This document shows positions 3,293 through 18,697 of a stretch of DNA of 25,915 nucleotides, in pieces; the first letter of the stretch is position 1, and the number at the start of each line of letters is the position of its first letter. This DNA is from Acidobacteriota bacterium (GTDB lineage Bacteria; Acidobacteriota; UBA4820; DSQY01), in the NCBI GenBank assembly GCA_037444385.1, contig JBBIMN010000001.1, forward strand, positions 1 to 25,915, read 5' to 3'. The notes beneath the pieces are model-generated. The model worked only from the letters and a program-made list of their open reading frames with translations. It made no database searches and was not told where the DNA came from. A program made the translations under genes and the position numbers.

Positions 3293-3346
3293 ATGAGAGG
3301 CGGGTTGAAGGCGCTCGTCCGCCATCCATCATCCAAATGATGGCGA

Positions 3347-3919
3347 ATGGACGACTCTCGGATGAAGGACCACGAACTGCATGAACGAAGGTTTAACGGC
3401 GGAGCCGAGCGGCTGCGCTCGCCCGAGAGAATAGCCCGTCTCGAAATTGGCCGCGTGGTCGCTTTGAGCCTTGAAGGCCTCGCCGTAAAAAGCGTTCTCG
3501 ACGTCGGAACCGGCGCGGGCGTCTTCGCCGAGGCTTTCTCCAAGTCAGCCGCAAGCGTGGCCGGCATAGACGTCAGCGCCGAGCTTCTCGCGGCCGCGAG
3601 AAAGCACGTTCCCAACGCCCTCTTTCTTGAAGCCCCGGCCGAGAAACTTCCCTTCGCCGACGGCTCCTTCGACCTGCTCTTCCTTGGCAGCGTTCTTCAT
3701 GAGACCGATGATCCACTCAAAGCATTGGAGGAGGCCCGGCGGGTGGCCATCAGCAGGGTCGCCGTCCTCGAATGGCCGTACAAAGAAGAAGAGGCAGGGC
3801 CGCCGATCCACCACCGCCTAGGGCTTGAAGCAATCGCAGAACTCGCTATCAGGGCGGGTTTTGAAGCCGTCGAGCACATCGCCCTTGCCCGCATGGATTT
3901 GTACAGGCTGACGCCATAA
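3347..3919 (+). CDS. class I SAM-dependent methyltransferase
   Basis: VLDVGTGAG motif I, GIDVS, AEKLPFADGSFDL and VLHE motifs; start could instead be ATG 3362. Confidence 0.88.
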   Translation: MDDSRMKDHELHERRFNGGAERLRSPERIARLEIGRVVALSLEGLAVKSVLDVGTGAGVFAEAFSKSAASVAGIDVSAELLAAARKHVPNALFLEAPAEKLPFADGSFDLLFLGSVLHETDDPLKALEEARRVAISRVAVLEWPYKEEEAGPPIHHRLGLEAIAELAIRAGFEAVEHIALARMDLYRLTP

Positions 3920-3982
3920 CGCCAGAGACAAGCACATTCCTCCCGTCAGCCCGTTGACTCATCAACTCATCAACGGCATCGC

Positions 3983-4315
3983 TTAATGGCCCGACGCCTC
4001 TCGCGATTTCTGGCGGGTGATGTTCATCACCCTGAGCGCGACGTTGGTCCCGCCTTGGGCGCGGTATGCGAGGCGCAACTGGTCCCCAACGGCCGGCTCC
4101 GCGCCGATCTCGGCGCTGCTTATGTCAAATGTCTGGGGCCGGGCCTCCGGATTTGCCTCGTCCTTCAAGGCAATGGTTTTGCCATCCGTGGCCACGGAGA
4201 CGACGGTCCCTTGAACGACCGGCGCGGGCGGCGAACAGGCGGCGAAGAGAAGCATGATCGCCATGAATGCAAGCGCGGCGGCACATTTCAGTTGCAATGG
4301 TCCGCTGTTTTTCAT
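3983..4315 (-). CDS. small lipoprotein, 110 aa (MKNSGPLQLK...), possible OB-fold-like beta domain
   Basis: True start inferred at the ATG overlapping the TSUP stop (ATGA, 4315-4312) with SD GAGGAGG upstream; hydrophobic signal ending in lipobox LFAA-C; the longer ORF-track N-terminus overlaps the TSUP gene out of frame. Confidence 0.8.
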   Translation of the reverse strand: MKNSGPLQLKCAAALAFMAIMLLFAACSPPAPVVQGTVVSVATDGKTIALKDEANPEARPQTFDISSAEIGAEPAVGDQLRLAYRAQGGTNVALRVMNITRQKSREASGH

Positions 4316-5334
4316 CTCAACGCCCTCCTCGCCCTGAGCTCCTTGGCGGCGCCTTTCACCATTCCCGCGATGACCACCAGCGTCATCGCCGAAACTGCCG
4401 TCATTACGACCCAGGAGGCGGCTGTCGTCATCTTTAATTGTTTGAGAATGACGGAAATCATGGCGAAAAACACGGTGCAGCCGAACATGAGCCTGATGCC
4501 GTAGCCGCGGATGTACTTTGTGGCGATGGTACCAACCTGCGCGCCGGGCGCCGCGCCAAGAAGCATGATGATGACGGCCAGAAGCTCTATCCTCCCCTTC
4601 ATGCCGTAAGTGAAAGCGCCGTAGAAACCGGCGAGCATGACCGTGAAGAGGTCTGTTCCCACGGCAACGTACGTCGGGCAGCCGATGAGGTATACAAGCG
4701 CCGGCATCATTAAGAGGCCGCCGCCGATCCCCAACAGTCCCGCCAGGAAACCGACAAGAAAGCCCACGCTGGCGGGAAGCCAGAGCGAGCACTCGACCTG
4801 CGCGACGTTGAAACGCACGATGGGAGGAATCTTGATCTTGTGGAGCGTCTCGTGCCAGTGCACCGCCGAGCCCGAAGGCGCGCCGCCTTCGGTGGCGGAC
4901 TTTTCGAGAGACCGTTTTTTGAAGAAGTCGTAGAAAACCAGAAGGCCGATCAGAAAAAGGAAGACCACGTAGACCCAGCGGATGACCGGCCCGGCAAGCC
5001 CCAACCTTTCAAGGTACATGACGAGCCTCGCCCCAAGCTCGATGCCGATGACGTCGAACACCAGCATGGCAAGCCCCAGCTTGGCGTCCACGTTGCCGAA
5101 CTTGGCGTGGCGGCGCGTCGAAATGATTGACTTGCCAGCCATGTGGCACAGGTCGGTCCCGACCGCGAAGGGCATTGGAAAGCCGAAAATGTTCAAGGCC
5201 GGGGTCACCATCCAGGCGCCGCCCATTCCAAAGAAGCCGCCCAGGACGCCCACGGCGACGCCCAAGAGAACGAGCAGCAGCGGATTAATTGAGACGCCGG
5301 AAATCGGAAGCGTAATGGTCAGCCATTCGTGCAT
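4312..5334 (-). CDS. sulfite exporter TauE/SafE (TSUP) family membrane protein
   Basis: Two internal repeats with GFFGMGGAW...AVGTDL and GLLGIGGG...AVGTDL; multiple TM helices; SD AGGAG upstream. Confidence 0.92.
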   Translation of the reverse strand: MHEWLTITLPISGVSINPLLLVLLGVAVGVLGGFFGMGGAWMVTPALNIFGFPMPFAVGTDLCHMAGKSIISTRRHAKFGNVDAKLGLAMLVFDVIGIELGARLVMYLERLGLAGPVIRWVYVVFLFLIGLLVFYDFFKKRSLEKSATEGGAPSGSAVHWHETLHKIKIPPIVRFNVAQVECSLWLPASVGFLVGFLAGLLGIGGGLLMMPALVYLIGCPTYVAVGTDLFTVMLAGFYGAFTYGMKGRIELLAVIIMLLGAAPGAQVGTIATKYIRGYGIRLMFGCTVFFAMISVILKQLKMTTAASWVVMTAVSAMTLVVIAGMVKGAAKELRARRALR

Positions 5335-5343
5335 TGCAGCCTC

Positions 5344-5640
5344 CTACTCCTGGCCTTCGTGCTTGCTCAGGTCCAGCCCGATGGCGCCGACAAGAAAATC
5401 CATCAATAGGCCAAGACAGAGCCCCATCAAAGCCGTTATGGCCACGGCCTCGATGGTGAACAGGAGCCTGTTGGTGTTGTACAGATCGGCGATGTAGAGG
5501 TTGAACCCGCTCAGGTGGCGCGTGTCGGCCACGTGTACAAGCTTGCCCTCTTTCTCTCCAGAGGCCAACGCTCCGAGAGGCAACACGAACAGGGCCGCCG
5601 CCGTGGCCAGCGCCCGTATGACCGGGAATCTCTTTTTCAT
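5344..5640 (-). CDS. small membrane protein, DVU0150-family-like (98 aa)
   Basis: MKKRF start with GGAGG SD; hydrophobic N-terminus, then VADTR...LYN...TM...G-D-L tail, which matches my recollection of the Desulfovibrio DVU0150 family that sits next to TSUP genes (needs an HMM check). Confidence 0.72.
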   Translation of the reverse strand: MKKRFPVIRALATAAALFVLPLGALASGEKEGKLVHVADTRHLSGFNLYIADLYNTNRLLFTIEAVAITALMGLCLGLLMDFLVGAIGLDLSKHEGQE

Positions 5641-5655
5641 TGGCCCCTCCACTTT

Positions 5656-6974
5656 TCAGAATACTATCTGGTACTGCAGCCGGTACTCGTAGCCGTGGTA
5701 ACGGGACGCGTCGTTCCGAATCTTTCGGCAGTCGGCCTGAAGTTTAGAGTTGAACCCGCTGAAGTACCAGTTGGCGCCGATTCCAGTTTCGGTCTGCCGG
5801 TCCATCAACTTCGCGTCGTTTGGGTCGTAGCCCCATCGGCCCGCGAAAAGTTCCAGCCTCTTGGGGATTAAGAGAAAGCCCAACTGCGCGTTGAGGCCGT
5901 TCGATGCCGTCAGATTGCCCTTGACGTCGAAACTGTGGCGGCCGAAGTATTCGCCGTAGGCGGTGAACCACTTGCACTTGAACATCAGGTCGTAACCGGC
6001 CGTGTGGTACATCGCGCCCGAGGCCGGCGTGCCGTTTTGCGCCGGAACGCGCCTGTCGTTGTGCTCGTATTCGAAGCCCAAGGAGAGTTTCGGTTTGGCG
6101 CTCCCGAATGGATTCGCCTCATCGTATCCCGCGCTGCCCCACGGGCTCGGGGCCGTGGGGGTAGACGCCAGTCCCGCTGGTACTTGTTGTCGGCGTTGGT
6201 GTAAACGCTGCGGCCTCCGCCGTTGTATAGACCCACGCTGTACTCGAACATGTCCTTAACGGAAGATGGGCCGAATTGGCCGGTCGCCATTATGCCCACG
6301 TCGCGGATGCTGCAAAATTGCGTCGTGACGAAGGAGCGGTCAGCGAACTGGTCCGTTCTGGTCGAAGCGATGCTTTGCCGGCCGAAAGGCGTTTTGCCCT
6401 GGCCCGCCCGAATCTGAAAGAGCCCCTTGCCGTGCGTGAAGTCATATTGGATGTAAGCATCGTCCAAAACGCCCAACGCGGTATTGGCGTTTGCCCAATC
6501 GGCCTGAAAACGGAACGTCAGGTCTGGCGTGTAGGCCCAACCCGTTACCTGCGTCTTGAACCGTCTCACGGCGAAGGCCCCTTGGTCAACAGGGGCGGGA
6601 TCCTGATAGTGATCATCCGTCCATCTGTACTGAAGGCGGTTGGTGACGTTGATCTGCGCGTTTGGGAACTTGAAGGTGGTCTGGCCGTCCTTCCAGGAAA
6701 CCGATACGGGGGTGGGCGCGGCCGGAGTTTGAGCGCTCGCTTGCAAGGCGGACTGGGGCGCCTGAGGCGCGGCCTTGCTCTTTTCCAGTTGATCCAATCG
6801 CTTCTGGAGCGATTCAATGACGGACTGCTGCTTCTGGAGCGCTTCCTGTGCCTGCCGAAGCTGAAGCTTCAGCTCCTCGATCGGGTCTTGGGGTGTTTGG
6901 GCGAGGCAGAGCAAGCCGGACAGAACCATAACAGCCACGAACGGTGGTGCAAACAAGAGATGCGCGTGTTTCAT
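5656..6974 (-). pseudogene. phosphate/anion-selective porin (OprO/OprP-like), split by a frameshift near 6135-6175 (genuine lesion or sequence error)
   Basis: N-half: signal peptide, coiled coil, FAVRRFKT, LDDAYIQY, GQGKTPFG. C-half in another frame, open from a stop at 6256-6258: SPWGSAGYDE...YRLQYQIVF, ending in an outer-membrane beta-barrel C-terminal Phe motif. Confidence 0.8.
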
Positions 6975-7020
6975 CCTCCCCCCCCTTCGCGAGGCCGGAC
7001 TTTGCCCCACGGTACATTGA

Positions 7021-7098
7021 TGCGTCATTTTGGCTGGTTGTGTCAAGCGGCCTTTGGCGTCCTCATGCCGTTAGGGTTAAATGACCCATTTTGGGCTG
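7021..7098. promoter_or_regulatory. two related 17-bp sites in the divergent intergenic region (putative operator/UAS pair)
   Basis: TGCGTCA-TTT-TGGCTGG (7021-7037) and TGACCCA-TTT-TGGGCTG (7082-7098), 61 bp apart. Confidence 0.4.
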
Positions 7099-7138
7099 CA
7101 TGAAAGGCGATGACTTGAAGGCGGAGCGGCCGGCTGGG

Positions 7139-7147
7139 TGTTACAAT
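7139..7147 (+). promoter_or_regulatory. extended -10 promoter element for the kinase operon
   Basis: TG-T-TACAAT, 24 nt upstream of GTG 7171. Confidence 0.5.
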
Positions 7148-7170
7148 AGTGGCGGGGCGGGAAGAGGGCC

Positions 7171-8202
7171 GTGAAAAAAAGAGACCGGCAAGGAGAGGTG
7201 CCGCCAGCGGCAAGGCCGATGCTTCAGAACGGCTGGCCGATTTTATGCCTGGGTCCCGCTTGCCTTCTGCTATTCGCGTCGGGGGTATGGCTTCTTAATG
7301 CCACCCGCGTTATCACGTTTGCCGCACTTCTCTTGGCCGTTCTTCTTCTCTACGGCATTCTGGTGTGGCCTTTTTGGGTACTGCGTCGGCGCCGGATGTC
7401 GAAGCTGGAGCAGGAGCGAGACGCCTTCTACCAGGAGTTGCTAAGAAATTCAAAGGCCGCTGGCCTCGGCGAGATGGCGTCAAGCATAGCCCACGACATC
7501 AACAACCCGCTTGCTATAATGCACGAGGAGGCCGGATGGATAGAGGATCTGCTTCGCAAGCCCGAGGCCAAGAACCAGTCCACGCTTGATGAGATCGCCA
7601 ATTCCGCGGCGCAGATCGAAATACAGATCCGCCGCTCCAGGGACATTACGTCGCGCATTCTGAACTGGACTCGCGAGAGCGGCGGCCCGGCCAGCCAGAC
7701 GGACGCCAACCTCCTCTTCAACAAGACTCTCTACCTGCTGGAGGGCGATCTGCAAGCGAGCGGCGTGAAGGTCGTCAAGAGTTTCGCCGAGGGGTTGCCG
7801 CCGGTGCGCGGCGCCGCTTGCGAATGGCAGCAGGTCTTTTTGAACCTGATGAAGAACGCCCTGGATGCCATGCGCCCGTCAGGCGGGGTTTTGACGCTTT
7901 CCACGAGAGACGCCGGCGCCTGGGTCCGTGCCACCGTGGGCGACACGGGCCGCGGAATCCCTCCTGGCGATCTGGCACGCATTTTCGATCCCTTTTTTAC
8001 GACCAAGCCCCCCGGCGAAGGCACCGGCCTCGGCCTTCCAATCAGCCGGTGGATAGCGGAAAAACAGGGCGGCAAGATAGAGGTGGAGTGCCTTTTGGGC
8101 CAGGGCACCGCGTTCCACGTTTTTGCCCCCAAGGCCGTTGCGGATTGCGGAGGTGAAGGATGGAGGAGTCATGACAAGGCTGATCCGCCTGCTCATCGTT
8201 GA
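7171..8202 (+). CDS. sensor histidine kinase with 2 TM helices and no extracytoplasmic sensor domain
   Basis: H-box SIAHDINNP, N-box QVFLNLMKNALDA, G1 DTGRGI, F-box IFDPFFTTK, G2 GEGTGLGL; start uncertain (7171, 7198 or 7219). Confidence 0.92.
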   Translation: MKKRDRQGEVPPAARPMLQNGWPILCLGPACLLLFASGVWLLNATRVITFAALLLAVLLLYGILVWPFWVLRRRRMSKLEQERDAFYQELLRNSKAAGLGEMASSIAHDINNPLAIMHEEAGWIEDLLRKPEAKNQSTLDEIANSAAQIEIQIRRSRDITSRILNWTRESGGPASQTDANLLFNKTLYLLEGDLQASGVKVVKSFAEGLPPVRGAACEWQQVFLNLMKNALDAMRPSGGVLTLSTRDAGAWVRATVGDTGRGIPPGDLARIFDPFFTTKPPGEGTGLGLPISRWIAEKQGGKIEVECLLGQGTAFHVFAPKAVADCGGEGWRSHDKADPPAHR

Positions 8203-8581
8203 TGACGAGGAGCGTTTCGTGGAAACCCTTTCCAAAAGGTTTGCCGCCAGGGGCTTTTATGTCGAGGGCGCCAACAGCGGCCCTGATGCCCTGGCCATTC
8301 TCAACCAGAAGCCTTTCGACGTCGTGCTTTTGGATCTGAGAATGCCCGGGATGGACGGGCTTCAGACGCTTAGAGAGATTCGCTCGGCGCAGCCTCTGTT
8401 GCAGACCGTCATGCTCAGCGGGAACGCATCCATCAACGCCGCCGTGGAGGGGATGCGCCTCGGCGCGTCGGATTACCTTTTGAAACCGGCGGACATCGAG
8501 GAGGTAATCGCGAAAGTAGAAGAGGCGTTTGAAAAGAAACGCTTAAAAGAGAAGGATTTGTCTGGCCGAAATGAAGCGTAG
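8171..8581 (+). CDS. stand-alone response regulator (REC only, 136 aa)
   Basis: ATG 8171 after GGAGGAG; LIVDDEE, LLDLRMPGMDG (phospho-Asp), YLLKP; no output domain. Confidence 0.92.
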   Translation: MTRLIRLLIVDDEERFVETLSKRFAARGFYVEGANSGPDALAILNQKPFDVVLLDLRMPGMDGLQTLREIRSAQPLLQTVMLSGNASINAAVEGMRLGASDYLLKPADIEEVIAKVEEAFEKKRLKEKDLSGRNEA

Positions 8582-8638: not shown

Positions 8639-11266
8639 ATGAAGTTGAGCGGTTTTATCCGCAAGGTTTTCGGCCTCGGGCAGTGGCGCCCGGTGGAAGC
8701 CCGCCTTAATCCTCAGGCGGCGCTGCACTTGCGGTACCTCAATTTCAAAGAACTTACAACCTCCAACGACGAGATACTGGAGGTCGTCGCCGGCCTGGAA
8801 CGAAGACTGGACTCCGACTCGCTCTTTGGGATGGGCTACGTCCGGTCCAGGTGCGTTACGGCGGCGACGCACGCCTACCGGATGGTCCAGAACCTGAACG
8901 CCATTTCCAGCCGCCGCTATCCAGAGCTTCTGCTGGTTTTCGGAGACGTTCAACGCGCGATGGAGAGGGCTCTCGACCGCGGACGCGCGCGAAGCGAGGG
9001 GCCGCTCACCTATTCATTAAGAGCCGTGGACCTCTCCCTTGCCGAAAACGTTGGAGGCAAAAGCGCCAACCTCGGGGAACTGAAGAACGGAGCCAAGCTG
9101 CCCGTACCGGAAGGCTTCGCCATTTCCACCAGCGCTTACCATAGCTTCCTGGAAGCCAACCAGTTGGGCGACGAGATTCGCGTCCGCCTTTTGAGCCTTG
9201 ATATTGACGACCTCGAGAACCTCGACCACACGAGCGGCTCCATCCGGCGCCTCATCAGGAAAACGCCGCTTCCCGAAACGCTCGAGGCGGCCATACAGGG
9301 GGCCTACCAGGAACTTTGCGCTTCGCTTGGCCATTCTCCCAGAGTCGCTCTGCGGTCAAGCGCCATCGGCGAGGACGGCCATCTCTCTTTCGCTGGACAG
9401 TACGTGAGCCTGTTGAACGTTATTCCCTCCAAAATCATTGACGCCTACCGCGAAGTCATTGCCGGGCTATACACTCCTCAGGCGATCTACTACCGCGCCA
9501 TCAACGGTATACCAAACGAGGATATTCCAATGGGCGTCGCCTGTTTGGCGATGGTAGAGGCTTCCGCCAGCGGAGTCGCCTGTTCGCTCGACCCCAATCA
9601 TCCCGCTTCGGGGAACATGGTTATAAACGGCGCCTGGGGCTTGGGCGTAGCCACGGTGGGGGGGTCGGTGAGCCCGGACACCTGGGATGTCGCAAAAGGG
9701 CCGGAGCCTTCAATCAAACGAGCCTCCCTCGGGGCCAAGGAGACCTGCATGGAACCTCTTCAGGAGGGCGGCATAGCCCCGCGGCCCCTTCCTGAAAACC
9801 TCCAAACGGCTTTCTGCCTTACTTCTGGCCAGGTGAAAGACCTGGCGCTTCTGATAATGGCGGTTAGAGCGCACTATGACGCGGAACAGGAAGTGGAGTG
9901 GGCGCTCGATTCAAGCGGCCGCTTCTTTCTGATGCAGAGCCGTCCGCTGCATTTTTCCGTGAAGGCCGAGAGCGGCAACGAGCCGGCTCTCGAAGCCGAT
10001 GGCCACCCTCTCGTGCTGCGGGGCGCCTCCGCGGCAACCGGTTGCAGGTGCGGGCCGGTATTTATCTCCATGCGCCCTGACGACATAGGCGGTTTTCCGG
10101 AGGGCGCCGTTCTCGTTGCGCGCCACTCCTCGCCCGAATACGTCAAAGTAATGAACCGCGCCGCCGCGATAGTCACGGACGTAGGCGCCATTGCGGGACA
10201 CATGGCCTCCTTGGCCCGCGAGTTCGCCATTCCGGCCGTTTTTGACGCGAAAGAGGCCACAACGATACTGGCCGACGGAGAGATCGTAACCGTTGACGGC
10301 ACAAGAGGGGCCGTCTACCGCGGGCGAGCTGAAAGCCTGCTTGACGACCCCGGCCAAAGGCGCCCGCGCAAGATGACGGGCACCCCTGTCTACAAGGTCC
10401 TTCAGGAAGTGGCAAGTTTCATCGTTCCGCTGAACCTGACGGACCCGCGATCGCCGGATTTTTTTCCGCGCGGATGCAAAACGATTCACGACATAGCGCG
10501 CTTCGCGCACGAACGCGCCTTCGAGGAGATGTTCCGCCTCAGCGACCGCGTCTCCAAGAACGCTTACCAGGCGATGGTTTTGGAGGCGCGCCTGCCGTTC
10601 GAGCTTTGTCTGATTGACCTGGGCGGAGGACTTTCGCGTCCTTTTGGATCCGGCCGCGTGAAGCCCTCCGAAGTGATTTCGCGTCCAACGGCGGCGTTGT
10701 TAAAGGGCATGTCGGACGCCAAGCTTCGCTGGTGGGAGCCGAAACCGGTCAGCGTGCGCGGGCTTGTATCCGTCGCAACCGAATCGCTCCTTGGCCCCGG
10801 TGACGAGTTCGGCCAGCGGAGGCTTGGGGACCGCAGCTACGCCATAATCGCCGATGCTTATTGCAATTTCAACTCCCGCATCGGCTACCACTTCACGGCG
10901 GTGGACGCCTACTGCTGCGATACGGCCAGCCGAAACTATATAAGCTTCCGGTTCAAGGGGGGCGCCGCGGACGAATTCCGCAGAGCCAACCGCTGTCTGC
11001 TCATTGAAAAAATACTCCACCGTCTCGACTTTCAGGTGGAACGCCAGGGAGATCTGGTAAACGCGAGGTTCAGGAAGTTTCCGCCCGAGGCGCTTTTGAA
11101 ACGGCTGGAGGAGTTGGGGCGGCTGGTTGTCGCCACGCGGCAGCTCGACATGCGGATGGGAGCAAGCGCGGCAATAGAATGGTACGTGGAGGCATTTTTC
11201 AAAGGCAACTATCTGTTTGATCCTGGCGCGGCCGAGGAAAACGGCTCCAAAGGGGCGCCGCCATGA
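8639..11266 (+). CDS. PEP/pyruvate-binding-domain family protein 1 (PPDK_N ATP-grasp + His-swivel domain + uncharacterised C-terminal domain)
   Basis: VGGKSANLGEL, RSSAIGED..SFAGQY, WGLG, EVEWA..QSRP; phospho-His motif GAIAGH(521)MASLAREF; lacks the PEP-utilizers C-terminal TIM barrel motifs. Confidence 0.9.
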   Translation: MKLSGFIRKVFGLGQWRPVEARLNPQAALHLRYLNFKELTTSNDEILEVVAGLERRLDSDSLFGMGYVRSRCVTAATHAYRMVQNLNAISSRRYPELLLVFGDVQRAMERALDRGRARSEGPLTYSLRAVDLSLAENVGGKSANLGELKNGAKLPVPEGFAISTSAYHSFLEANQLGDEIRVRLLSLDIDDLENLDHTSGSIRRLIRKTPLPETLEAAIQGAYQELCASLGHSPRVALRSSAIGEDGHLSFAGQYVSLLNVIPSKIIDAYREVIAGLYTPQAIYYRAINGIPNEDIPMGVACLAMVEASASGVACSLDPNHPASGNMVINGAWGLGVATVGGSVSPDTWDVAKGPEPSIKRASLGAKETCMEPLQEGGIAPRPLPENLQTAFCLTSGQVKDLALLIMAVRAHYDAEQEVEWALDSSGRFFLMQSRPLHFSVKAESGNEPALEADGHPLVLRGASAATGCRCGPVFISMRPDDIGGFPEGAVLVARHSSPEYVKVMNRAAAIVTDVGAIAGHMASLAREFAIPAVFDAKEATTILADGEIVTVDGTRGAVYRGRAESLLDDPGQRRPRKMTGTPVYKVLQEVASFIVPLNLTDPRSPDFFPRGCKTIHDIARFAHERAFEEMFRLSDRVSKNAYQAMVLEARLPFELCLIDLGGGLSRPFGSGRVKPSEVISRPTAALLKGMSDAKLRWWEPKPVSVRGLVSVATESLLGPGDEFGQRRLGDRSYAIIADAYCNFNSRIGYHFTAVDAYCCDTASRNYISFRFKGGAADEFRRANRCLLIEKILHRLDFQVERQGDLVNARFRKFPPEALLKRLEELGRLVVATRQLDMRMGASAAIEWYVEAFFKGNYLFDPGAAEENGSKGAPP

Positions 11267-13851
11267 CCGCTGGCGGCTTTCTGGACTCTTTGAGAAGGCG
11301 CATCCATGGCCGCCATGGGGATGCCAGTGGCATGGATGGATTGCAGGCGAAGTATAACGCCTTCAGCCAGCTGGTGGAGGCTAACACCAGTGCGCTGGAG
11401 ACCGTCTCCGACTTGCAGGCCAAAGTTTCAGGCGACTACGTCTTTGACCGTGTCTATCTCGAAAGCGCAACACGCAAGGCACTGGCTCTTGGGGGCGAAG
11501 TGGCTGGCTTGCTTCAGGAGGTCTCAGGCGGGCGTTACGCCGCGCTGAAGAAAGCGCACTCAAGGTTGGCTGAAGAGGTTGGGGCGGCGCTGAAAGCTTC
11601 ACCGGCAAAGCCTTCGGGGCCTCTGGTGATTGGCCTTGATATGGCGCCAAAATATGCGGAGGAGCTATGCGGCGCCAAAGTTGGCCACTTGGCGAAGATT
11701 CTCGTGGGAGCGGCCCTTCCGGTGCCGGATGGTTTCTGCGTCACGAGCGCCGCCTGCTTTACCTTCCTTGAACAGGGCGGGTTGCTTGAAGCCGCCTCGG
11801 ATATCGTGGAGGGGCTTTCCGTCGTTGACGGGCCGGCTTTGCGTCTGGCCAGCGCGAAGCTCAGAGAGCGCATTCTGTCCACGCCGTGGCCAAAGGACAT
11901 GGCTCAAGCGATTCTACTTGCCTTCGGCCAGCTTGAAGAGCGGCTCGGTGGAAACCTTTTGGTTTCCGTGCGCTCCAGCGCCGCGGGCGAGGATGGCGCA
12001 TTCAGCTTCGCTGGACAGTTCGGAACGCTCCTGAACATAGGGCGCGACGGTCTCTTGAACGCATGCTCCGAAGTGGTGGCCAGCCAGTTCTCCCCGCGGG
12101 CACTCGTCTACTACAAGTCCAAGGGCGTGGCGGAGGGCATCCTGCCGATGGCCATAGGCGTAATCAGCATGGTGGACGCAAGGGCCAGCGGCGTTCTTTA
12201 CACCAGGGACCCGAAGGACCCTCAAAGCGGCGCGATGACTGTAGCCGCTCAGTGGGGCCTTGGCACGCTTACCGTAGACGGCTCTGGAACGCCCGATCTT
12301 TTTTCCGTCAGCCGTAATGAGGGAACCGTCCTTGAAGCGCGCGTGGCGCGCAAGGAGCGAATGGTCCTGTGCAGGGAGGGGGTGGGGCTGACGGAAGTCT
12401 CCGTTCCCGGATGGATGCAAACAAGCCCCTCGCTCACCAACGGCGAGCTGGCTTCGCTCGCTACGTACGGCAACCGGCTGGAAGCCTTCTTCGATGGGCC
12501 GCAAGACGTGGAGTGGGCGCTTGATTCGAGAGGCGTCCTGTACGTTTTACAGTCGCGTCCTTTGAGGTTAAAGGTTCTGGAAACCCCGGTTCTGGATCCA
12601 GCCGCCTTGAGGCGCGGGCTGGCGCCTCTCGTCAGGGAAGGCGTCATAGCAAGCCGCGGCTGCGCGGCCGGCCAAGTCTTTCTCCTTGAAAGCGAAGCGC
12701 GGCTGCCGGAGGTTCCGGCGGGCGCGATATTGGTCGCGAAGACGGCCTCGCCCCGCCTCGCCGAAGCGGTGGGCCGTGTGGCGGGCATTATCTGCGACAC
12801 GGGTTCCTCGGCCAGCCACCTGGGCACCGTCGCCCGGGAGTTCAATATCCCAGCTCTCTTTGATACACGGGCCGCGACACAACTTCTGCGCCACGGTTCC
12901 ACGGTGACGCTTGACGCTGAAATGGGCCACGTCTATTCAGGGACGCTGCCGGAGATCGTGGCGGCGGCCTCGCAACGAAAGGCGAAAGACGGCGCGGCGG
13001 AGCCGCCGCTCCTTCGGCGCGCGAGGGCGGCCGTGTCCCTGCTGGCGCCTCTCAATTTGACCGATCCGCAAAGCCCCGCTTTCAAACCCTCCAAGTGCCG
13101 GTCGCTTAACGACATTTTACGGTTCGCCCACGAAAAGGCCGTGGAGGAAATATTTCTCGCTGGAAGCCGCTTCAGCCGGTCCGGCGGGAGCACCCGCCGC
13201 CTTGCCTCTTCACTGCCCCTGGACTTTCGCTTCATTGACTTGGGAGGAGGGCTCGCGCCTCCGAAAAAGAAGCGTTGCGTCACGCCGGAAGAGTTCCTCT
13301 GCCGGCCTCTGCTTTCGCTTTGGCGAGGGATTGCCGAAGTTCCATGGCCGTCCGGCGCCGCCGCCAGCGCGGGACAGGCGGCGTCTCTGATGATGACAGC
13401 CCTTACTGACACGAGGGGGGACGCTTGGGCGCCAAGCCCCAACTATGCTATTGTCTCCTCTGACGCGCTGAACCTCAGCTTCAGGCTTGGCTACCATTTC
13501 TCCCGCGTGGACGCGCGCATGAGCGAAAACAAAGATAAGAACTACGCCAGTTTCCTCTTTCAGGGAGGCGCCGCGAACGCATCCGGAAAGGCGAGGCGCG
13601 TGGCATTGATCGCCAAGGTTTTGGAAAGAAGCGGCTTTCACGTGACGGCGAAAGGTGACGCCCTCTTCGCCCGAACCGAGCGGGACGGGGAAGAAGAGAT
13701 TGAGGAGAAGCTGAAGGTTCTGGGCAGATTGCTGGCCGCGACGCGGCAGGCCGACACGCTGCTTGGCGATGACGCCTCCGTCGAGGCGGCCCTTGCGGCC
13801 TACCTCGCCGGAGATTTAACGCTTGGATTCGGCAACTCGAAGGAGCTTTAA
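11263..13851 (+). CDS. PEP/pyruvate-binding-domain family protein 2 (paralogue of 8639-11266)
   Basis: CGAKVGHL, RSSAAGED..SFAGQF, WGLG, DVEWA..QSRP; GSSASH(519)LGTVAREF; ATGA overlap with protein 1. Confidence 0.9.
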   Translation: MTAGGFLDSLRRRIHGRHGDASGMDGLQAKYNAFSQLVEANTSALETVSDLQAKVSGDYVFDRVYLESATRKALALGGEVAGLLQEVSGGRYAALKKAHSRLAEEVGAALKASPAKPSGPLVIGLDMAPKYAEELCGAKVGHLAKILVGAALPVPDGFCVTSAACFTFLEQGGLLEAASDIVEGLSVVDGPALRLASAKLRERILSTPWPKDMAQAILLAFGQLEERLGGNLLVSVRSSAAGEDGAFSFAGQFGTLLNIGRDGLLNACSEVVASQFSPRALVYYKSKGVAEGILPMAIGVISMVDARASGVLYTRDPKDPQSGAMTVAAQWGLGTLTVDGSGTPDLFSVSRNEGTVLEARVARKERMVLCREGVGLTEVSVPGWMQTSPSLTNGELASLATYGNRLEAFFDGPQDVEWALDSRGVLYVLQSRPLRLKVLETPVLDPAALRRGLAPLVREGVIASRGCAAGQVFLLESEARLPEVPAGAILVAKTASPRLAEAVGRVAGIICDTGSSASHLGTVAREFNIPALFDTRAATQLLRHGSTVTLDAEMGHVYSGTLPEIVAAASQRKAKDGAAEPPLLRRARAAVSLLAPLNLTDPQSPAFKPSKCRSLNDILRFAHEKAVEEIFLAGSRFSRSGGSTRRLASSLPLDFRFIDLGGGLAPPKKKRCVTPEEFLCRPLLSLWRGIAEVPWPSGAAASAGQAASLMMTALTDTRGDAWAPSPNYAIVSSDALNLSFRLGYHFSRVDARMSENKDKNYASFLFQGGAANASGKARRVALIAKVLERSGFHVTAKGDALFARTERDGEEEIEEKLKVLGRLLAATRQADTLLGDDASVEAALAAYLAGDLTLGFGNSKEL

Positions 13852-15689
13852 TGCCCGCCGGCCTTGCCAAGACCAGAAAAATAGTGCCCCTCGCGGGAAT
13901 GGCGGCCACGACCCTCTTGCTTATCGCGGCCTTCGTGCTGGGCCTCGTCTCCTTCGGCAAGATGCGCCAGGTGGTTACGGAGGAGTTCAACCAGCAACAA
14001 CTCGTCCTGGCGAAAAACCTCTCGGCCCTGATACACCAGGACTTGGATTTTCTTCGCCGGGAGCTCATGGTCTTGAACAGCTCGCCATCCATCCAATACT
14101 CGGAATCGCCATCCTGGCGAAGCCGGATTAAGGTGACGATCGGCTCCATCCAGGGCGAAGAGCTTCTTGAAGTCTGGCGCTGGGAGCCGCTGGATAATAA
14201 TGTGCTCGTCATGGACAGGAACGGCAGCGTGCGCGGCGAGGCATGGCCGTTCGCGAAGGACAAATTGGCGGCCTGGGCGAAGGACGAATCGCACCGCAAC
14301 AAGATCATGCTGGTTGCCGTTCCAGACTCTATTGGCGCGCGTTACAAAGGGAAGGCGCTGCTGTTGATGGTGGTCCCAAACTACCAGGTGTCTCCCGATG
14401 AAGCGCACGCCTTCCCTTCCGGCCGTTTCTCCGGCGCGCTGGCCTTTCTTCTGGACGCCTCAGCCGTGGCGTCGCGCTTCGTTGACGATGCGCGTTCGGG
14501 CGGCACCGGCTACGCGTGGGTGATTGACGGCCAGGGGACATTTCTGGCCCATCCAAAGCGCGAGTTCATCGGGCGCAACGCCTTCACGGCGCGGCGAGAG
14601 GAGTATCCCTCCCTGGGTTTCGAGCGGATCAATGAAATCATGCGCGACCAAATGCTGAAAGGGCGAGAGGGAACTGGCGAGTACGTTTCGGGCTGGCACC
14701 GGGATGTAGCGGGGCCGGTCGAGAAGCTGATCGCCTATTCGCCGGTGGAGGTTGACAACGGCCCGCCGGGCCTCTTCTGGTCCGTTGCCGTCGTCGCGCC
14801 TACAAGCGAGGTGCAAGGCCTGGTGCGCGCTCTCTTCATGCGCCAATTCTTCATTCAGGCGGCAATATTTTTGGCCATCGTGGCGGGCGCATTTTCGGTC
14901 GTGCGCCTCGAGCGCTACTGGTCGCGCTTGCAGAAGCAGAAGGAGCGGGAGATAAATCTCTCCAGCCGCCTGGCCGCACTTGGAACGCTTGCCGCCGGAG
15001 TGGCTCACGAGATCAACAATCCCGTGGCGATCATACTTGGCTTCACGGACCTGCTTTTGGAAAAGTTCCCGGAAGGGGCCGAGGGACACGACCAGCTCAA
15101 GATCATCGAGCGTCAGGGGTTGGCGTGCAAGAAGATCGTGGAGAACCTGGGCCGCTTCGCGCGCATTCCAGAGCAGCGCGACGAAACCAGCGACGTGAAC
15201 GAGGAGGTCCGCCGCGTGGTGGCCATGGTCAACAACACTCTTCTCACGGAGAAGATCGTTTGCAAGACCGAGCTGGAAGACGGGTTGCCGAAGGCCATGG
15301 GCGATCCGCAGGGGCTCGGACAGGTCCTTCTCAATCTCATCACGAACGCGCGGGCGGCGATGAAAAGCGGAGGCGCGCTTACCATAGGAACCCGTCTTGA
15401 TGGCGCCTTCGTGGAACTGCGGGTGAGCGACACCGGAAGCGGGATACGCAAACGCGACCTGGCCCACATTTTCGACCCCTTCTTTACGACGAAGGCCCCG
15501 GGAGAGGGCACCGGGCTTGGTCTTTCGATCAGCCACGGCATCATCGAAAGGGCGGGAGGCACCATGGCGGTCCAAAGCCGCCACGAGGAGGCGGCGGCGG
15601 GCGAATCCAGCGGAACGACATTCGCGGTAAGGCTTCCGGTGGCGGACACAATACGCCGGGATGGCCAATCAAAAGGAGAATTACAATGA
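13851..15689 (+). CDS. membrane sensor histidine kinase with periplasmic dCache-type domain
   Basis: TM - about 300 aa periplasmic region (GYAWVIDGQGTFLAHP Cache motif) - TM; GVAHEINNP, DTGSGI, GEGTGLGL; TAATG overlap with the upstream stop. Confidence 0.92.
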   Translation: MPAGLAKTRKIVPLAGMAATTLLLIAAFVLGLVSFGKMRQVVTEEFNQQQLVLAKNLSALIHQDLDFLRRELMVLNSSPSIQYSESPSWRSRIKVTIGSIQGEELLEVWRWEPLDNNVLVMDRNGSVRGEAWPFAKDKLAAWAKDESHRNKIMLVAVPDSIGARYKGKALLLMVVPNYQVSPDEAHAFPSGRFSGALAFLLDASAVASRFVDDARSGGTGYAWVIDGQGTFLAHPKREFIGRNAFTARREEYPSLGFERINEIMRDQMLKGREGTGEYVSGWHRDVAGPVEKLIAYSPVEVDNGPPGLFWSVAVVAPTSEVQGLVRALFMRQFFIQAAIFLAIVAGAFSVVRLERYWSRLQKQKEREINLSSRLAALGTLAAGVAHEINNPVAIILGFTDLLLEKFPEGAEGHDQLKIIERQGLACKKIVENLGRFARIPEQRDETSDVNEEVRRVVAMVNNTLLTEKIVCKTELEDGLPKAMGDPQGLGQVLLNLITNARAAMKSGGALTIGTRLDGAFVELRVSDTGSGIRKRDLAHIFDPFFTTKAPGEGTGLGLSISHGIIERAGGTMAVQSRHEEAAAGESSGTTFAVRLPVADTIRRDGQSKGELQ

Positions 15690-16102
15690 GCGCTAAACTC
15701 TTGGTCCTTGACGACGAAGTGGACATGCTAAGCCTGCTTGAGGCGATCATAACCGGGCGGACCGGCCACGAGGTCGTCGCTTCCAATAACCCGCTCGAGC
15801 TGGAGGATCTGATGGAAGCCAACAATTTCGACCTTGTCATAACCGATCTCAAGATGCTTGGCAGAGACGGGCTTGAGGTGATGGAAAAGGTCCGCCAAAA
15901 GGACGATACCATCCCCGTGGTGATCATCACCGCTTACGGCAGCCTCGAATCCGCGCAGGAAGCGGTCCGAAAGGGCGCTTACGACTACATCGCCAAGCCG
16001 TTCAGGAAAGAACAGGTGCTGTTAGCCGTCGAGAGGGCGCTTGAATGGCGGCGCATCACGCTGGAGAACCGGCGGCTCAAAAGCGAAAAGGGGCGGACTT
16101 GA
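15686..16102 (+). CDS. stand-alone response regulator (NtrC-type REC plus linker helix, no AAA+ domain)
   Basis: LVLDDE, VITDLKM, YIAKPF; ends ALEWRRITLENRRLK shortly after REC; ATGA overlap with the kinase. Confidence 0.92.
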   Translation: MSAKLLVLDDEVDMLSLLEAIITGRTGHEVVASNNPLELEDLMEANNFDLVITDLKMLGRDGLEVMEKVRQKDDTIPVVIITAYGSLESAQEAVRKGAYDYIAKPFRKEQVLLAVERALEWRRITLENRRLKSEKGRT

Positions 16103-16154
16103 CCTTATGGCCCTGCCAACTTGTGAACTTGTCTCCTGATGAAGGAACCCTTCC

Positions 16155-17543
16155 ATGAAGATGGCTTCGTTTCCGAGGCTTGTGGTGGCTGGTCTCTCGG
16201 GAGATTCCGGTAAAACGGTTCTCGGCCTTGGTATGCTCCTGCTGGCGCGCGAGCGCGGCATGGCCGTAGCGGCCTTCAAGAAGGGGCCCGATTACATTGA
16301 CGCCGCGTGGCTGCGCTGGGCATCAGGAAACAAGGCGCGAAACCTGGATACCTATCTCATGGGCTTCGACAAGGCCCAAGCCTCATTCGCCCGCCACGCG
16401 CTTCAAGACGGGCTCAACGTCATCGAAGGGAACCGCGGACTTTACGACGGCTTCGACGCCAAAGGGACCCACAGCACGGCGGAGCTTGCGAAGGCATTGG
16501 GCGCGCCGGTTCTCTTGGTGATCAACGCCACCAAGGTTACCAGGACGGTAGCCGCCATGGTTCTTGGCTGCCAGCGATTCGATTCTGGCGTGGCTTTTGC
16601 GGGGGTTGTCCTGAATCAGGTGAGCGGGAAACGCCACGAGCGGGTCATCAGGGAGGCGATTGAGGCGTCGTGCGGCTTGAAGGTCCTGGGGGCGCTGCCG
16701 CGCGGGGCCGGAAATGTTCTGCTGCCCTGGCGGCATTTAGGGCTCGTGACGCCGGAGGAGCATCCGCATCTGGCCGATCTATCATCTTCGGTGCTGGCTC
16801 TTTGCCGAGATCATCTTGATTGGGGGGCCATCCTCGCCGCGTCCGAAAAGGCCGCCCCGATTGAGGTTCTGGCTGAACCGAAGCCCCGGGCGCATTCGGC
16901 GGAGCGAGTCAGGATAGGGGTCGTGATGGATTCGGCCTTTACCTTTTACTATCCGGAGAACATCGAAGCGCTTGAGGATGGCGGGGCTGAAATCGTGCCG
17001 GTTTCGCCATTGCGTGACGTGATTTTTCCCATGGGCATTCAAGCCCTTTACGCCGGAGGCGGGTTCCCCGAGACGCACGCTCACGCGCTTTCGGCAAACA
17101 GTGCGTGGCTCAATGGCCTGCGCGTGGCCTGCGAGAATGGCCTTCCGGTCTACGCCGAGTGCGGCGGGCTGATGCTTCTTTCAAAAGCGATCCATTGGGA
17201 AGGCCGCCGGTATCCTATGGCCGGGGCGCTGCCGGTGGAGGTGGCGGTCCATCCCTCGCCCCAGGGCCACGGTTACGCCGAGTTGAAGGTTGACCGCGAG
17301 AATCCTTTCTTCCCCGCCGGCTCGCGGATAATGGGCCACGAGTTTCACTACTCGGCCCTCGCGCCTTCAGAAACTCCCGTCGCCACGGCATGCCGCGTCG
17401 TCAGAGGTACCGGTGTTGGAGAGGGCCGTGACGCGATAATCGCCAACAACGTCTGGGCCTCATACACCCACGTTCACGCCGCGGGAACACCCGAATGGAG
17501 CCGCGGCCTGCTCTCCGCCGCCCGCGCTGCGCCAAAGCGATAG
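16155..17543 (+). CDS. cobyrinate a,c-diamide synthase family amidotransferase (CbiA/CobB; possibly DsrN-type siroheme amidase)
   Basis: GDSGKT P-loop, FKKGPDYID, IEGNRGLYDG, RHLGL, glutaminase YAECGG, GHEFHYS and YTHVH. Confidence 0.9.
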   Translation: MKMASFPRLVVAGLSGDSGKTVLGLGMLLLARERGMAVAAFKKGPDYIDAAWLRWASGNKARNLDTYLMGFDKAQASFARHALQDGLNVIEGNRGLYDGFDAKGTHSTAELAKALGAPVLLVINATKVTRTVAAMVLGCQRFDSGVAFAGVVLNQVSGKRHERVIREAIEASCGLKVLGALPRGAGNVLLPWRHLGLVTPEEHPHLADLSSSVLALCRDHLDWGAILAASEKAAPIEVLAEPKPRAHSAERVRIGVVMDSAFTFYYPENIEALEDGGAEIVPVSPLRDVIFPMGIQALYAGGGFPETHAHALSANSAWLNGLRVACENGLPVYAECGGLMLLSKAIHWEGRRYPMAGALPVEVAVHPSPQGHGYAELKVDRENPFFPAGSRIMGHEFHYSALAPSETPVATACRVVRGTGVGEGRDAIIANNVWASYTHVHAAGTPEWSRGLLSAARAAPKR

Positions 17544-17548
17544 ATACA

Positions 17549-18697
17549 TCACGCGCCGGGCAGGGTGAGCCTCACCTCCGCGCCTTTTTCCCCGACCGGC
17601 CTGGCCGCCATCTGGCCGTGGACGAGGGAAGCGAGGTAGCGCGCGGCTGCAAACCCCAGCCGGTACTGGACGTGTTCGGTGTTTCCAGGCTCGGGCTGCG
17701 GCAGAGCGAAGAAAATGGTCAAGAGGCGCTGGACCGGAGGGCGTTCCTCGTGCTGCTCCGGCATGGCCACCATGAGGTGCGCCTTGCTGCCGCCGGTCTC
17801 TCCGCTAAAGGCAACCTCGCCCCCCTCCGCGCATAGAAATATGGCGTTGCGGACGATGTATTCCAGCAGCGGCTCCAGCACCACTTGAGAAACGCTGGTG
17901 AGGACCTCCTTTTCAACCGCGCCCGTGATGCGCACCTTGCGCTGCCTTGCCTCCTTGACCAGCCTGTCCTGAACCCTCGCTAGGACCGCGTTCAACGGAT
18001 ATGGAGGAACCGGCGCAAGGTCAAGGTTGCGCAAAAAACGCGAGAAGTCGAGGAGAAGTTCAAGCATCTCGGCCAATTGGGCGGTGTTTCTGTGAATCGC
18101 CCTCAACGGCCGCTCCTGTTCGGGATTCATCGAGCCGTAGCGGCCGCGGAGCAACAACTCGCAAAAGCCGAGAACGACGCCGGGGGGGGTTTTGAGGTCG
18201 TGGCCCAGGGCCGAGAGCAGGTCCTCCTGCACGTGCGAGCGGGCGTGAAGCCACTCATTGGCAACCCGGAGCTTCTCCACGAGCTGCTTCTGCTGCCTGG
18301 CTTGCTCCATTTGGTCGCTCACGTCGCGAAAGACGCCTTCGTACCCCAAAGGCTCGCCATTGGGCCCGGCAAGGCGCCTCAAGCTCCACTCGGCGTAGAA
18401 AACAAAACCGTCCCTGCGGCGGGTTGGCGAAACGAACGAAGAGACGACCCCCTCCGCGTCGGCCTGACGCCTCAGTTTCTCGCGGTACTCGGCGCTGACG
18501 TTGGTGTCAAGCGTGGTGACGCGGCCTATCATCTCCGAGGGCGTATACCCCAGCATCGCGGCGCCGCATTTGTTTATCTCAACGAACCCGCCCGCGTTGT
18601 CGCTGCGGTAATATCCGATGCCCAGCCCTTCCAGCGTTTCCAGCGACTGCGGGTCGGGCTTTTTCACCGTCCGTCTGTTTGGCACAACCGCCTCCAT
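17549..18697 (-). CDS. PAS-domain histidine kinase-like protein with degenerate HATPase domain
   Basis: PAS region (INKCGAAMLGY...RRRDG...RDVS), H-box LGHDLKTP, N-box IVRNAI; no DxGxG or GxGxG boxes. Start may be GTG 18685, since GGAGG at 18695-18691 is a good SD. Confidence 0.82.
   Translation of the reverse strand: MEAVVPNRRTVKKPDPQSLETLEGLGIGYYRSDNAGGFVEINKCGAAMLGYTPSEMIGRVTTLDTNVSAEYREKLRRQADAEGVVSSFVSPTRRRDGFVFYAEWSLRRLAGPNGEPLGYEGVFRDVSDQMEQARQQKQLVEKLRVANEWLHARSHVQEDLLSALGHDLKTPPGVVLGFCELLLRGRYGSMNPEQERPLRAIHRNTAQLAEMLELLLDFSRFLRNLDLAPVPPYPLNAVLARVQDRLVKEARQRKVRITGAVEKEVLTSVSQVVLEPLLEYIVRNAIFLCAEGGEVAFSGETGGSKAHLMVAMPEQHEERPPVQRLLTIFFALPQPEPGNTEHVQYRLGFAAARYLASLVHGQMAARPVGEKGAEVRLTLPGA

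Follow-up and report, generated by a model that had tools for sequence, protein, structure and literature searches.

What does a dikinase of the phosphoenolpyruvate (PEP) synthase type act on when the domain that should bind pyruvate has been replaced? This question is raised by two neighbouring genes in a stretch of 25,915 nucleotides, here called the window, from an Acidobacteriota bacterium (assembly GCA_037444385.1, contig JBBIMN010000001.1, positions 1 to 25,915 of the forward strand). The genes code for proteins A and B, which share one architecture and are 35% identical over their full length (E 4e-155). The stop of A and the start of B overlap as ATGA, and the pair was called translationally coupled. 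Herein, we describe the domain with which both proteins end, referred to as C-dom, and weigh what it may do. The features of the two genes are as follows (aa, amino acids; nt, nucleotides).

8639-11266, + strand: protein A (P0001), 875 aa
11263-13851, + strand: protein B (P0002), 862 aa, architecture as in protein A
8639-9040, + strand: N-terminal helical domain of A, residues 1 to ~134, with a homologous region in the mini proteins described below
Residues 136-448 of A (E 1.5e-83) and 134-435 of B (E 8.8e-75): PPDK_N ATP-grasp domain (PF01326, Pfam)
Residues 486-557 of A (E 2.5e-21) and 485-555 of B (E 7.6e-17): PEP-utilizers swivel domain (PF00391, Pfam)
10199-10201, + strand: catalytic His521 of A, within ...AGHMASLARE...
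12817-12819, + strand: catalytic His519 of B, within ...SASHLGTVARE...
10391-11263, + strand: C-dom of A, residues 585-875
12997-13848, + strand: C-dom of B, residues 579-862
10499-10510, + strand: codons R621-F-A-H624 of A (RFAHE motif)
10886-10891, + strand: codons Y750-H751 of A (GYHF motif)

The dikinase front end is intact and the catalytic His is present in both A and B. An earlier reading of the bare sequence, the first-pass annotation, had claimed that the two proteins finish in one and the same domain, and this held: the C-doms by themselves align over 275 residues with 37% identity (E 3e-56), with a measured length of ~285 aa, and all motifs that it quoted were found in both proteins. 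These lie at A597/B596 (PLNLTDP), A621/B620 (RFAHE), A659/B658 (IDLGGGL), A749/B743 (GYHF), A774/B768 (GGAA) and A832/B826 (ATRQ). The domain starts that it gave, ~10420 and ~13040, fall on PLNLTDP (nt 10427 and 13048), but its overall span of 10420-13851 also covers the front two thirds of B.

Automatic database names ('pyruvate, water dikinase'), together with a C-terminal part similar in length and position to the PEP/pyruvate triosephosphate isomerase (TIM) barrel, would make A and B ordinary, if divergent, PEP synthases with a diverged barrel. The best NCBIfam models for A and B were indeed those of PpsA (PEP synthase), but they matched profile positions 10-469 of 798 only. The PpsA equivalog cut-offs (NF005057 and TIGR01418) were missed, with 342 bits against 598 and 323 against 740 for A and 288 against 598 for B. 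Cut-offs of the rifampin phosphotransferase/PigC type (NF041857, NF052631 and NF052632) were likewise missed (219 against 999, 207 against 1300 and 212 against 1350), and the swivel domains gave weak NCBIfam matches to PtsI. On the last ~285 residues of A and B, Pfam returned no match even at E<=1, PF02896 included, and NCBIfam returned none on the C-doms. The same hidden Markov model (HMM) recognised genuine PEP-utilizers_C proteins elsewhere in the genome, one Enzyme-I-sized and one sized like pyruvate phosphate dikinase (PPDK); a PPDK and an Enzyme I, both with a true barrel, are encoded there separately.

Profile and structure work was done with an alignment of 40 C-dom sequences, A1. Pfam found no recurrent family across all 40 members, the minis and the N-termini, and a PDB profile search with A1 gave one chance match only (E 0.7). 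When A1 was compared by hhalign with an alignment of 12 true barrels from the window's genome and its relatives, the probability was 0.3%. AlphaFold2 (AF2) modelled A1 with a predicted local distance difference test score (pLDDT) of 80 and a predicted template modelling score (pTM) of 0.71 as an alpha+beta domain, in which a long helix is followed by antiparallel beta-hairpins and two beta-alpha-beta-beta-alpha units, and not as a (beta/alpha)8 fold. Foldseek of this model against the PDB found nothing at E<=0.001 (top rows RecJ, the AlaRS C-Ala domain and PPX1, TM ~0.2), and VIA-align against 48,161 chains gave a best Z of 6.5, under the noise level of 7-8 (best Z 6.2 in a repeat look). No TIM barrel appeared among the matches in any fold search of C-dom. 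In the AlphaFold database (AFDB) and the ESM Atlas, the good matches were the family's own members only, and a feature search of the protein atlas likewise led to no clusters outside the family. In a single weak row, a C-dom-like fold shares an Atlas cluster with a PhoU_div domain (TM 0.52).

Collectively, this evidence leaves the diverged barrel effectively refuted, with next to no probability, and upholds the first-pass view that the domain stands where PpsA and PPDK have their barrel. The finding that the first-pass annotation had named as fatal to its reading, a confident structural match to the barrel with intact pyruvate-binding residues, did not turn up in these searches. As modelled, C-dom is a previously undescribed domain and not a PEP/pyruvate TIM barrel. 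It has neither a Pfam model nor a solved structure, and no biochemical or structural work on it turned up in the literature searched. By their domain content, proteins of this family named 'PEP synthase' or 'pyruvate, water dikinase' cannot make PEP.

Two leads from the fold searches were rejected. A DHHA1-like reading, to which the RecJ/AlaRS rows and a GG-AA loop resembling GGGH had pointed, was judged to be noise (VIA Z 3.8-5.0 over ~85 residues), and a tetrapyrrole link was dropped with its matches to coproporphyrinogen oxidase (Z 6.5) and bilin reductases (Z 6.3-5.3), all under the noise level. A CbiA/CobB-type amidotransferase gene (16155-17543) follows the second receiver of the window, and a close homologue (L054:14679-16241, E 8e-181) has a C-dom gene nearby in G104, from a different genus of the same family; this neighbour and the weak fold matches to tetrapyrrole enzymes are probably a coincidence.

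C-dom also occurs in proteins that have no dikinase. In the minis (P0197, P0249, P0253, P0264, P0122 and one open reading frame (ORF) in locus L052), which were judged not to be fragments, the N-terminal helices of the family are joined directly to C-dom without the ATP-grasp and without the catalytic swivel region, and P0127, P0257 and P0238 combine the N-terminus, the swivel and C-dom without the ATP-grasp. The mini P0197 (389 aa) was modelled by AF2 with a 68-sequence alignment (pLDDT 87, pTM 0.81). Its long helices at 2-56, 61-85, 92-109 and 118-129 are followed by C-dom, whose first helix (150-171) carries HDxxRxxHE. Over 367 residues, this model superposed (TM 0.82, rmsd 3.3) on a full-length member of 865 aa that ESM had modelled independently, both sides of the comparison being predictions. 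Given this superposition, the N-terminal helices and C-dom should also lie together in the full-length proteins. The ~130 aa of N-terminal helices and C-dom are thus predicted to pack as a single module that is discontinuous in sequence, interrupted by what reads as an inserted ATP-grasp and swivel His. The 'C-terminal domain' of the first-pass annotation therefore stands as a distinct, conserved domain, but would be one half of a larger unit. The minis keep D618, D660, N743, R747, H751, the GG pair, R785, D805 and D837 (numbering of A). In one mini locus, a receiver overlaps the start of the mini; in another, divergent TauE and Alph_Pro_TM genes are followed by the mini and then by a receiver. 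Since the module occurs without the dikinase in the same gene context, its role would go beyond offering an acceptor to the swivel His.

Residues 17-177 of the P0197 model matched generic four-helix bundles with Z 10-12, a span that, from the reported ranges and aligned lengths, must include the modelled HDxxRxxHE helix. Among these matches was CheA P1, a histidine phosphotransfer (HPt) domain, with CheY6 (Z 8.2). It could be proposed, then, that the bundle is an HPt-like relay that passes phosphate from ATP to His521, on to His624 and finally to Asp55 of a receiver, with the dikinase as an alternative phosphodonor. Such a relay would agree with an invariant His on the last bundle helix, with receivers that are canonical and adjacent or fused, and with the loss of H624 only where the dikinase is missing, as described below. 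However, all the bundle matches are below the helical-bundle noise bar of the search (~Z 13), the HPt row ranked 39, and no Hpt Pfam match was found. Judging from sequence, the conserved Phe628 and Phe632 lie on the helix face that also bears the conserved polar residues, which suggests a pocket rather than an exposed His, and the relay would leave the invariant beta-part unexplained. A complex prediction of the His domain and C-dom with REC1, the receiver upstream of A, scored 0.00 and gave no verdict, neither for nor against binding. We consider the HPt-like relay quite improbable.

Conservation within C-dom was assessed across 291 sequences, minis included, whose identity to A is 34-82%. 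The conserved residues, in the numbering of A, are H617, D618, R621, H624 and E625 of HDxxRxxHE, D660 with the GGG that follows it, N743, R747, Y750-H751, N766, G774-G775, R785, D805 and D837. Conservation was 100% for D618, H751, G775, R785 and D837, 99% for H617, H624, D805 and G774, 98% for R621 and N766, and 97% for D660. As far as sequences can tell, this pattern is enzyme-like or ligand-site-like. The C-dom of B keeps the conserved residues except for H617N, S681C and Y741A (A numbering). His was found at position 617 in 289/291 sequences, protein B (P0002) and P0219 being the only ones without it. Since the tandem second copies of other genomes were among the 291, the H617N change may be private to the window's genome.

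R621 and H624 showed no variation in the members carrying the ATP-grasp (257/257). In the members with the N-terminus but without the ATP-grasp, R621 was changed in 2/7 (Fisher p 6e-4) and H624 in 3/7 (p 1e-5) in a post hoc comparison; R621 was also altered in 4/27 short sequences of ambiguous architecture. H751, D618, R785 and D837, in contrast, were invariant everywhere, with or without the dikinase. As the invariance of R621 and H624 is confined to members with the dikinase module, the pattern fits a phosphate-handling role and would be the first evidence tying the RFAHE His to the phosphate-carrying machinery. The His of GYHF (H751) appears from the same comparison to belong to the intrinsic function of the module. 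Both His residues had been named in the first-pass annotation as candidate catalytic or second phospho-acceptor sites; both are conserved as it implied, but only H624 follows the dikinase.

Conservation of this kind bears on two further readings. In the first, the proteins are small-molecule dikinases whose C-dom is the acceptor site for a small anion (e.g., a sulfur oxyanion) carried by the neighbouring TauE, CHR or major facilitator superfamily (MFS) transporter; the His-borne phosphate would trap or activate this substrate, and the receivers would merely switch the enzyme on or off. PpsA, PPDK, rifampin phosphotransferase (PMC4844700), PigC and glucan water dikinase all use non-protein acceptors. 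The His/Asp/Arg/Asn conservation of C-dom is enzyme-like, and its beta-strand/Gly-rich-loop/helix motifs (IDLGGGL, FKGGAA) are typical of anion binding, but in the minis, which have no dikinase, both the site and the receiver/TauE neighbourhood persist. In the second, the module is a non-catalytic scaffold that only docks or oligomerises (as a receiver dock, an A/B heterodimer or a permease tether), and the His phosphate is hydrolysed or serves as a conformational switch. The C-terminal domain of PpsA/PPDK also mediates oligomerisation, tandem pairs are common, the minis function without a dikinase, and a receiver is fused to C-dom in one protein, all of which would suit a scaffold. Nevertheless, the invariance of H751, D618, R785, D837 and G775, with G774 near-invariant, exceeds usual interface conservation across 34-82% identity, and R621/H624, by tracking the dikinase, suggest phosphate chemistry. 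A purely structural role is therefore doubtful in our view.

The genes around A and B add a second line of evidence. The neighbours in the window are as follows.

4312-5334, - strand: TauE/TSUP-family anion permease, in a divergent operon
5344-5652, - strand: small DVU0150-type protein (phmmer 1e-29 to a gene of L005 annotated PF28216, the DVU0150 family)
5985-7046, - strand: Porin_O_P-like outer-membrane protein (phosphate-selective porin family), first gene of the divergent arm
7171-8202, + strand: histidine kinase 1 (HisKA and HATPase_c, Pfam)
8171-8581, + strand: stand-alone receiver REC1, with canonical DD, D55, K105 and P106
13851-15689, + strand: dCache histidine kinase 2, its start overlapping the stop of protein B
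15686-16102, + strand: stand-alone receiver REC2, with an ATGA overlap with the stop of kinase 2

The order is thus kinase 1, receiver 1, A, B, dCache kinase 2 and receiver 2, of which the last four overlap start-to-stop. An 80-nt overlap with kinase 1 results if the longest ORF for REC1 (8123-8581) is taken; the true start is more likely the in-frame ATG at 8171, which lies behind GGAGGAG and gives 136 aa. A further two-component pair lies downstream (19154-21744, - strand), consisting of a hybrid kinase with a receiver (19546-21744) and a stand-alone receiver (19154-19549).

Context was counted in 44 loci with full 8-kb flanks around a C-dom gene. Within 8 kb, a kinase was found in 42/44, a stand-alone receiver in 40/44, TauE in 36/44, a DVU0150-type gene in 31/44 and a second C-dom gene in 26/44. 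A random-window control on the window's own genome was uninformative (16 contigs were long enough, and the window dominates), and genome-wide ORF counts are quoted instead: the same seeds found 18 receiver-only, 29 kinase and 3 TauE ORFs in the whole 2.25-Mb genome. The loci of Acidobacteriota and Desulfobacterota have the same parts as the window, and a Porin_O_P-like gene also occurs at L039 and L045. No conserved metabolic enzyme was found beside the C-dom genes in the loci compared. This gene context points to signalling and permease control, not to metabolism. For phosphorylation of a small anion the neighbourhood cuts both ways: transporters of three anion-carrying families adjoin (TauE; Chromate_transp and MFS), but no conserved downstream enzyme for a phosphorylated product was found in the loci compared.

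The family extends well beyond the window, much further than chance would allow. Proteins that carry C-dom fall into 1207 clusters at 50% identity and almost always are ~860 aa long and end in it, and the domain was found in at least 584 loci of species-representative genomes from Acidobacteriota, Desulfobacterota, Planctomycetota, Binatia and others; cultured carriers include Desulfobulbus elongatus, Pseudodesulfovibrio pelocollis and Nitratidesulfovibrio. Its distribution is patchy in the window's phylum (17/201 genomes), yet 12/14 genomes of the window's own family carry it. The carrying genomes in this count have 1-6 copies, and tandem pairs are frequent. With PPDK_N, PEP-utilizers and the C-dom motifs (HDxxRxxHE, GYH, FxFxGG and the D837 type), A and B belong to this barrel-less, receiver-linked dikinase family. 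A third paralogue in the genome (L004:20-2694, + strand), on another contig, adjoins a GGDEF diguanylate cyclase gene (L004:2834-3652, - strand). Its apparent frameshift just past the catalytic His motif is a run of N in the assembly; a frameshift mutation was rejected, and the gene may be intact.

Fusion of C-dom to other proteins, which the first-pass annotation had suggested looking for, was observed. In the L046 protein, a receiver is fused three residues past C-dom, and in P0265 a low-molecular-weight protein tyrosine phosphatase (PTP) domain (LMWPc) is fused at the N-terminus, with MFS and chromate-type transporters encoded alongside. One AFDB entry named for a tyrosine-phosphatase domain has C-dom at its N-terminus, the phosphatase being known from the entry name only. 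A 1248-aa member (L167:2636-8938) has an N-terminal LMWPc domain and, past C-dom, a ~210-aa extension; it is followed by an MFS transporter, a gene of the chromate-ion-transporter family (Chromate_transp) and a GGDEF protein, so that the anion transporter family differs from TauE at this locus. Extra regions without a Pfam match were also seen as a ~470-aa N-terminal extension of the L043 protein (L043:9002-12634, - strand) and as ~200-aa C-terminal extensions of P0245 and two AFDB entries.

Separate phosphatase genes accompany some members. A dual-specificity phosphatase (DSP) gene lies directly downstream of the dikinase in Nitratidesulfovibrio and Oleidesulfovibrio (L163, L168), and in Nitratidesulfovibrio the receiver, the dikinase and the DSP phosphatase form one operon. 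Since no PTP loop (HCxxGxxR) was found in the 100 protein-A-type loci scanned, window included, the phosphatase link is, on this motif scan, limited to certain subfamilies. These phosphatases come from protein-phosphatase superfamilies, which argues against a small-molecule acceptor, though some of their relatives act on small molecules. In nine of nine Nitratidesulfovibrio genomes, the HMM match to the protein-A-type copy runs, near its end, past the stop codon of the gene (TGA, TAG or TAA); these proteins are probably a few residues shorter than the model.

One member of the family has been studied genetically. The "nitrate cluster" of D. vulgaris (DVU0251-0245) and D. alaskensis G20 (Dde_0597-0605) encodes a DUF169 protein, TauE (DVU0251), one hypothetical and one phosphonate-binding protein, a PAS/HAMP kinase, a receiver (DVU0247), the dikinase, annotated as 'PPDK/PEP-utilizing', and a dual-specificity phosphatase (DVU0245) (Korte et al. 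2014, PMC4001038). The Oleidesulfovibrio locus L168 matches the annotated G20 cluster genes (published Table 3) gene for gene, with DUF169, TauE, hypothetical protein, phosphonate-binding protein, PAS/HAMP kinase, 119-aa receiver, dikinase and DSP phosphatase. Its 828-aa dikinase is 35% identical to the C-dom of A (E 2e-45) and keeps HDxxRFAHE, GYH and FRFKGG. Because L168 equals the G20 cluster gene for gene and its dikinase carries C-dom, membership of the nitrate-cluster dikinase (DVU0246/Dde_0604) in the barrel-less C-dom family was verified at the sequence level. The AFDB entry Q72FG7 (744 aa, C-dom 472-736) is, we infer from the length match, DVU0246 (published 2235 bp). The DUF169 protein (L168:2921-3694) and the periplasmic phosphonate-binding-type protein (L168:6239-7225) have no counterpart in the window.

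The cluster was described genetically only, and the domain was not recognised (PMC4001038). With 100 mM nitrate, transposon mutants of the TauE, receiver, dikinase and hypothetical genes are able to grow, whereas the phosphatase mutant of D. vulgaris remains sensitive and has negative fitness. Mutants of the G20 cluster are slightly impaired on thiosulfate, and nitrate was proposed to leak in through a thiosulfate transporter (PMC4001038). That nitrate toxicity needs both permease and dikinase (PMC4001038) would also fit a futile phosphorylation cycle on a substrate analogue, as expected if C-dom were the site for a small anion. Taking the points on both sides together, we regard a small-anion acceptor as unlikely, although it deserves serious consideration. 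The window's small DVU0150-type protein relates to another cluster, DVU0145-0150, which is a sigma-54-controlled 'transmembrane transport' cluster (PMC4641369) and is up-regulated in syntrophy (PMC4265775).

The module is not a barrel, exists without the dikinase, and is linked to receivers, kinases and anion permeases. In view of this, we tentatively favour, at somewhat less than even confidence, the reading that the module serves as acceptor and output part of a regulatory dikinase that is coupled to receivers and exerts control over an anion permease, with a protein-borne final acceptor. The module would be the constant part of the family, a receiver-coupled regulator of a TauE-type anion permease, into which a dikinase is inserted in A and B. 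In the proposed sequence, the histidine kinases would load the stand-alone receivers, and the dikinase would move the beta-phosphate of ATP onto the swivel His (His521/His519). The swivel His would then hand the phosphate to a second, putative site on the module, lined by R621 and H624 of the HDxxRxxHE helix and adjoining the invariant H751, D618, R785, D837 and G775 and the near-invariant D660, D805, G774 and R747. From there, the phosphate would end on a protein-borne acceptor rather than a metabolite and so set the activity of the permease; the candidates are the receiver, the permease complex and the module itself, within which H624 is the foremost residue to consider. Some subfamilies may undo this step with a DSP or low-molecular-weight PTP phosphatase. 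The phenotype that the TauE, receiver and dikinase mutants share in a member of the family is in line with this proposal. We infer every phosphotransfer step past His521, the identity of the acceptor and the control of the permease.

Several points weigh against this proposal. To our knowledge, nearly all characterised ATP-grasp dikinases of the superfamily phosphorylate small molecules or glucans, not proteins. The ~15 invariant polar residues and two glycine-rich loops of C-dom resemble a small-ligand/oxyanion site. The R621/H624 comparison was not only post hoc but also drew on few sequences of reduced architecture, which are not independent of one another. No DSP phosphatase, and likewise no phosphonate-binding protein, was found in the window, in which the ten flanking ORFs (626-8581 and 13851-18697) were scanned with Pfam. 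The G20 phosphatase mutant has a phenotype of the same sign as the other mutants (PMC4001038), which weakens a kinase/phosphatase antagonism.

A bolder form of the regulatory proposal would make the module a new phosphotransfer/output module, through which an ATP-to-AMP dikinase feeds a phosphoryl group into two-component signalling (at His624 or the receiver) as a second, kinase-independent energy input gating TauE-type oxyanion permeases, with the minis as the ancestral regulator. In that full form it is improbable.

The family has consequences beyond this locus. Hundreds of anaerobes (Desulfobacterota, Acidobacteriota, Planctomycetota, Binatia and others) carry one to eight C-dom genes each, and correcting their names removes a systematic error from metabolic reconstructions. 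The family also links stand-alone two-component receivers and TSUP/TauE anion permeases to an AMP-forming His-dikinase, three parts that are not known to cooperate. The one member studied so far determines how sensitive sulfate reducers are to nitrate, which is relevant to limiting souring in oil fields. For finding the acceptor, the minis and the pattern at R621 and H624 offer concrete, cheap handles.

Compared with known systems, a dikinase with a swapped acceptor side is a familiar theme, and it is C-dom, the split architecture, the minis and the receiver/permease coupling that are undescribed in the searchable literature. A and B share with PpsA and PPDK the PPDK_N ATP-grasp followed in the same order by the swivel phospho-His domain. 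They differ in that the PEP-utilizers_C barrel is replaced by an unrelated alpha+beta domain with which extra N-terminal helices are predicted to pack, and in that they sit among signalling and permease genes rather than those of central metabolism, a separate true PPDK being present in the genome.

In the phosphotransferase system (PTS), the swivel-type phospho-His of Enzyme I passes its phosphate to the protein HPr in a transport-linked regulatory cascade. Enzyme I is thus a precedent for a protein acceptor of a swivel phospho-His, and the A and B swivels weakly match PtsI. However, Enzyme I lacks an ATP-grasp and instead draws on PEP by way of a TIM barrel, and its HPr-binding subdomain is unrelated to C-dom. 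PhoU of the Pst system and PII/GlnK of AmtB are likewise soluble, signal-integrating regulators encoded beside a permease; the likeness is one of working principle only, with no sequence or confident structural relation to C-dom, the PhoU link being the one weak structural row mentioned above.

Enzymes of the rifampin phosphotransferase (RPH), PigC and RedH type provide the idea of an ATP-grasp and swivel His serving a non-pyruvate acceptor domain (PMC4844700), and the first-pass annotation had seen in A and B a swap of this kind. The architecture does not agree. RPH is ordered as ATP-grasp (1-314), acceptor domain (327-754) and swivel domain (767-865) (PMC4844700), so that the acceptor domain is central and the swivel last, whereas in A and B the swivel (486-557 in A) precedes C-dom (585-875). 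No RPH chains were among the fold matches of C-dom in the PDB searches.

The closest comparison is with the nitrate cluster, whose dikinase (DVU0246/Dde_0604) is of the same family and shares the association with a receiver, a kinase and TauE. It represents another subfamily, at 35% identity, and its IDLGGGL is replaced. The window differs in having the tandem A/B pair and a DVU0150-type protein, without the DSP phosphatase and the phosphonate-binding protein, and thereby resembles the DVU0146-0150-type arm.

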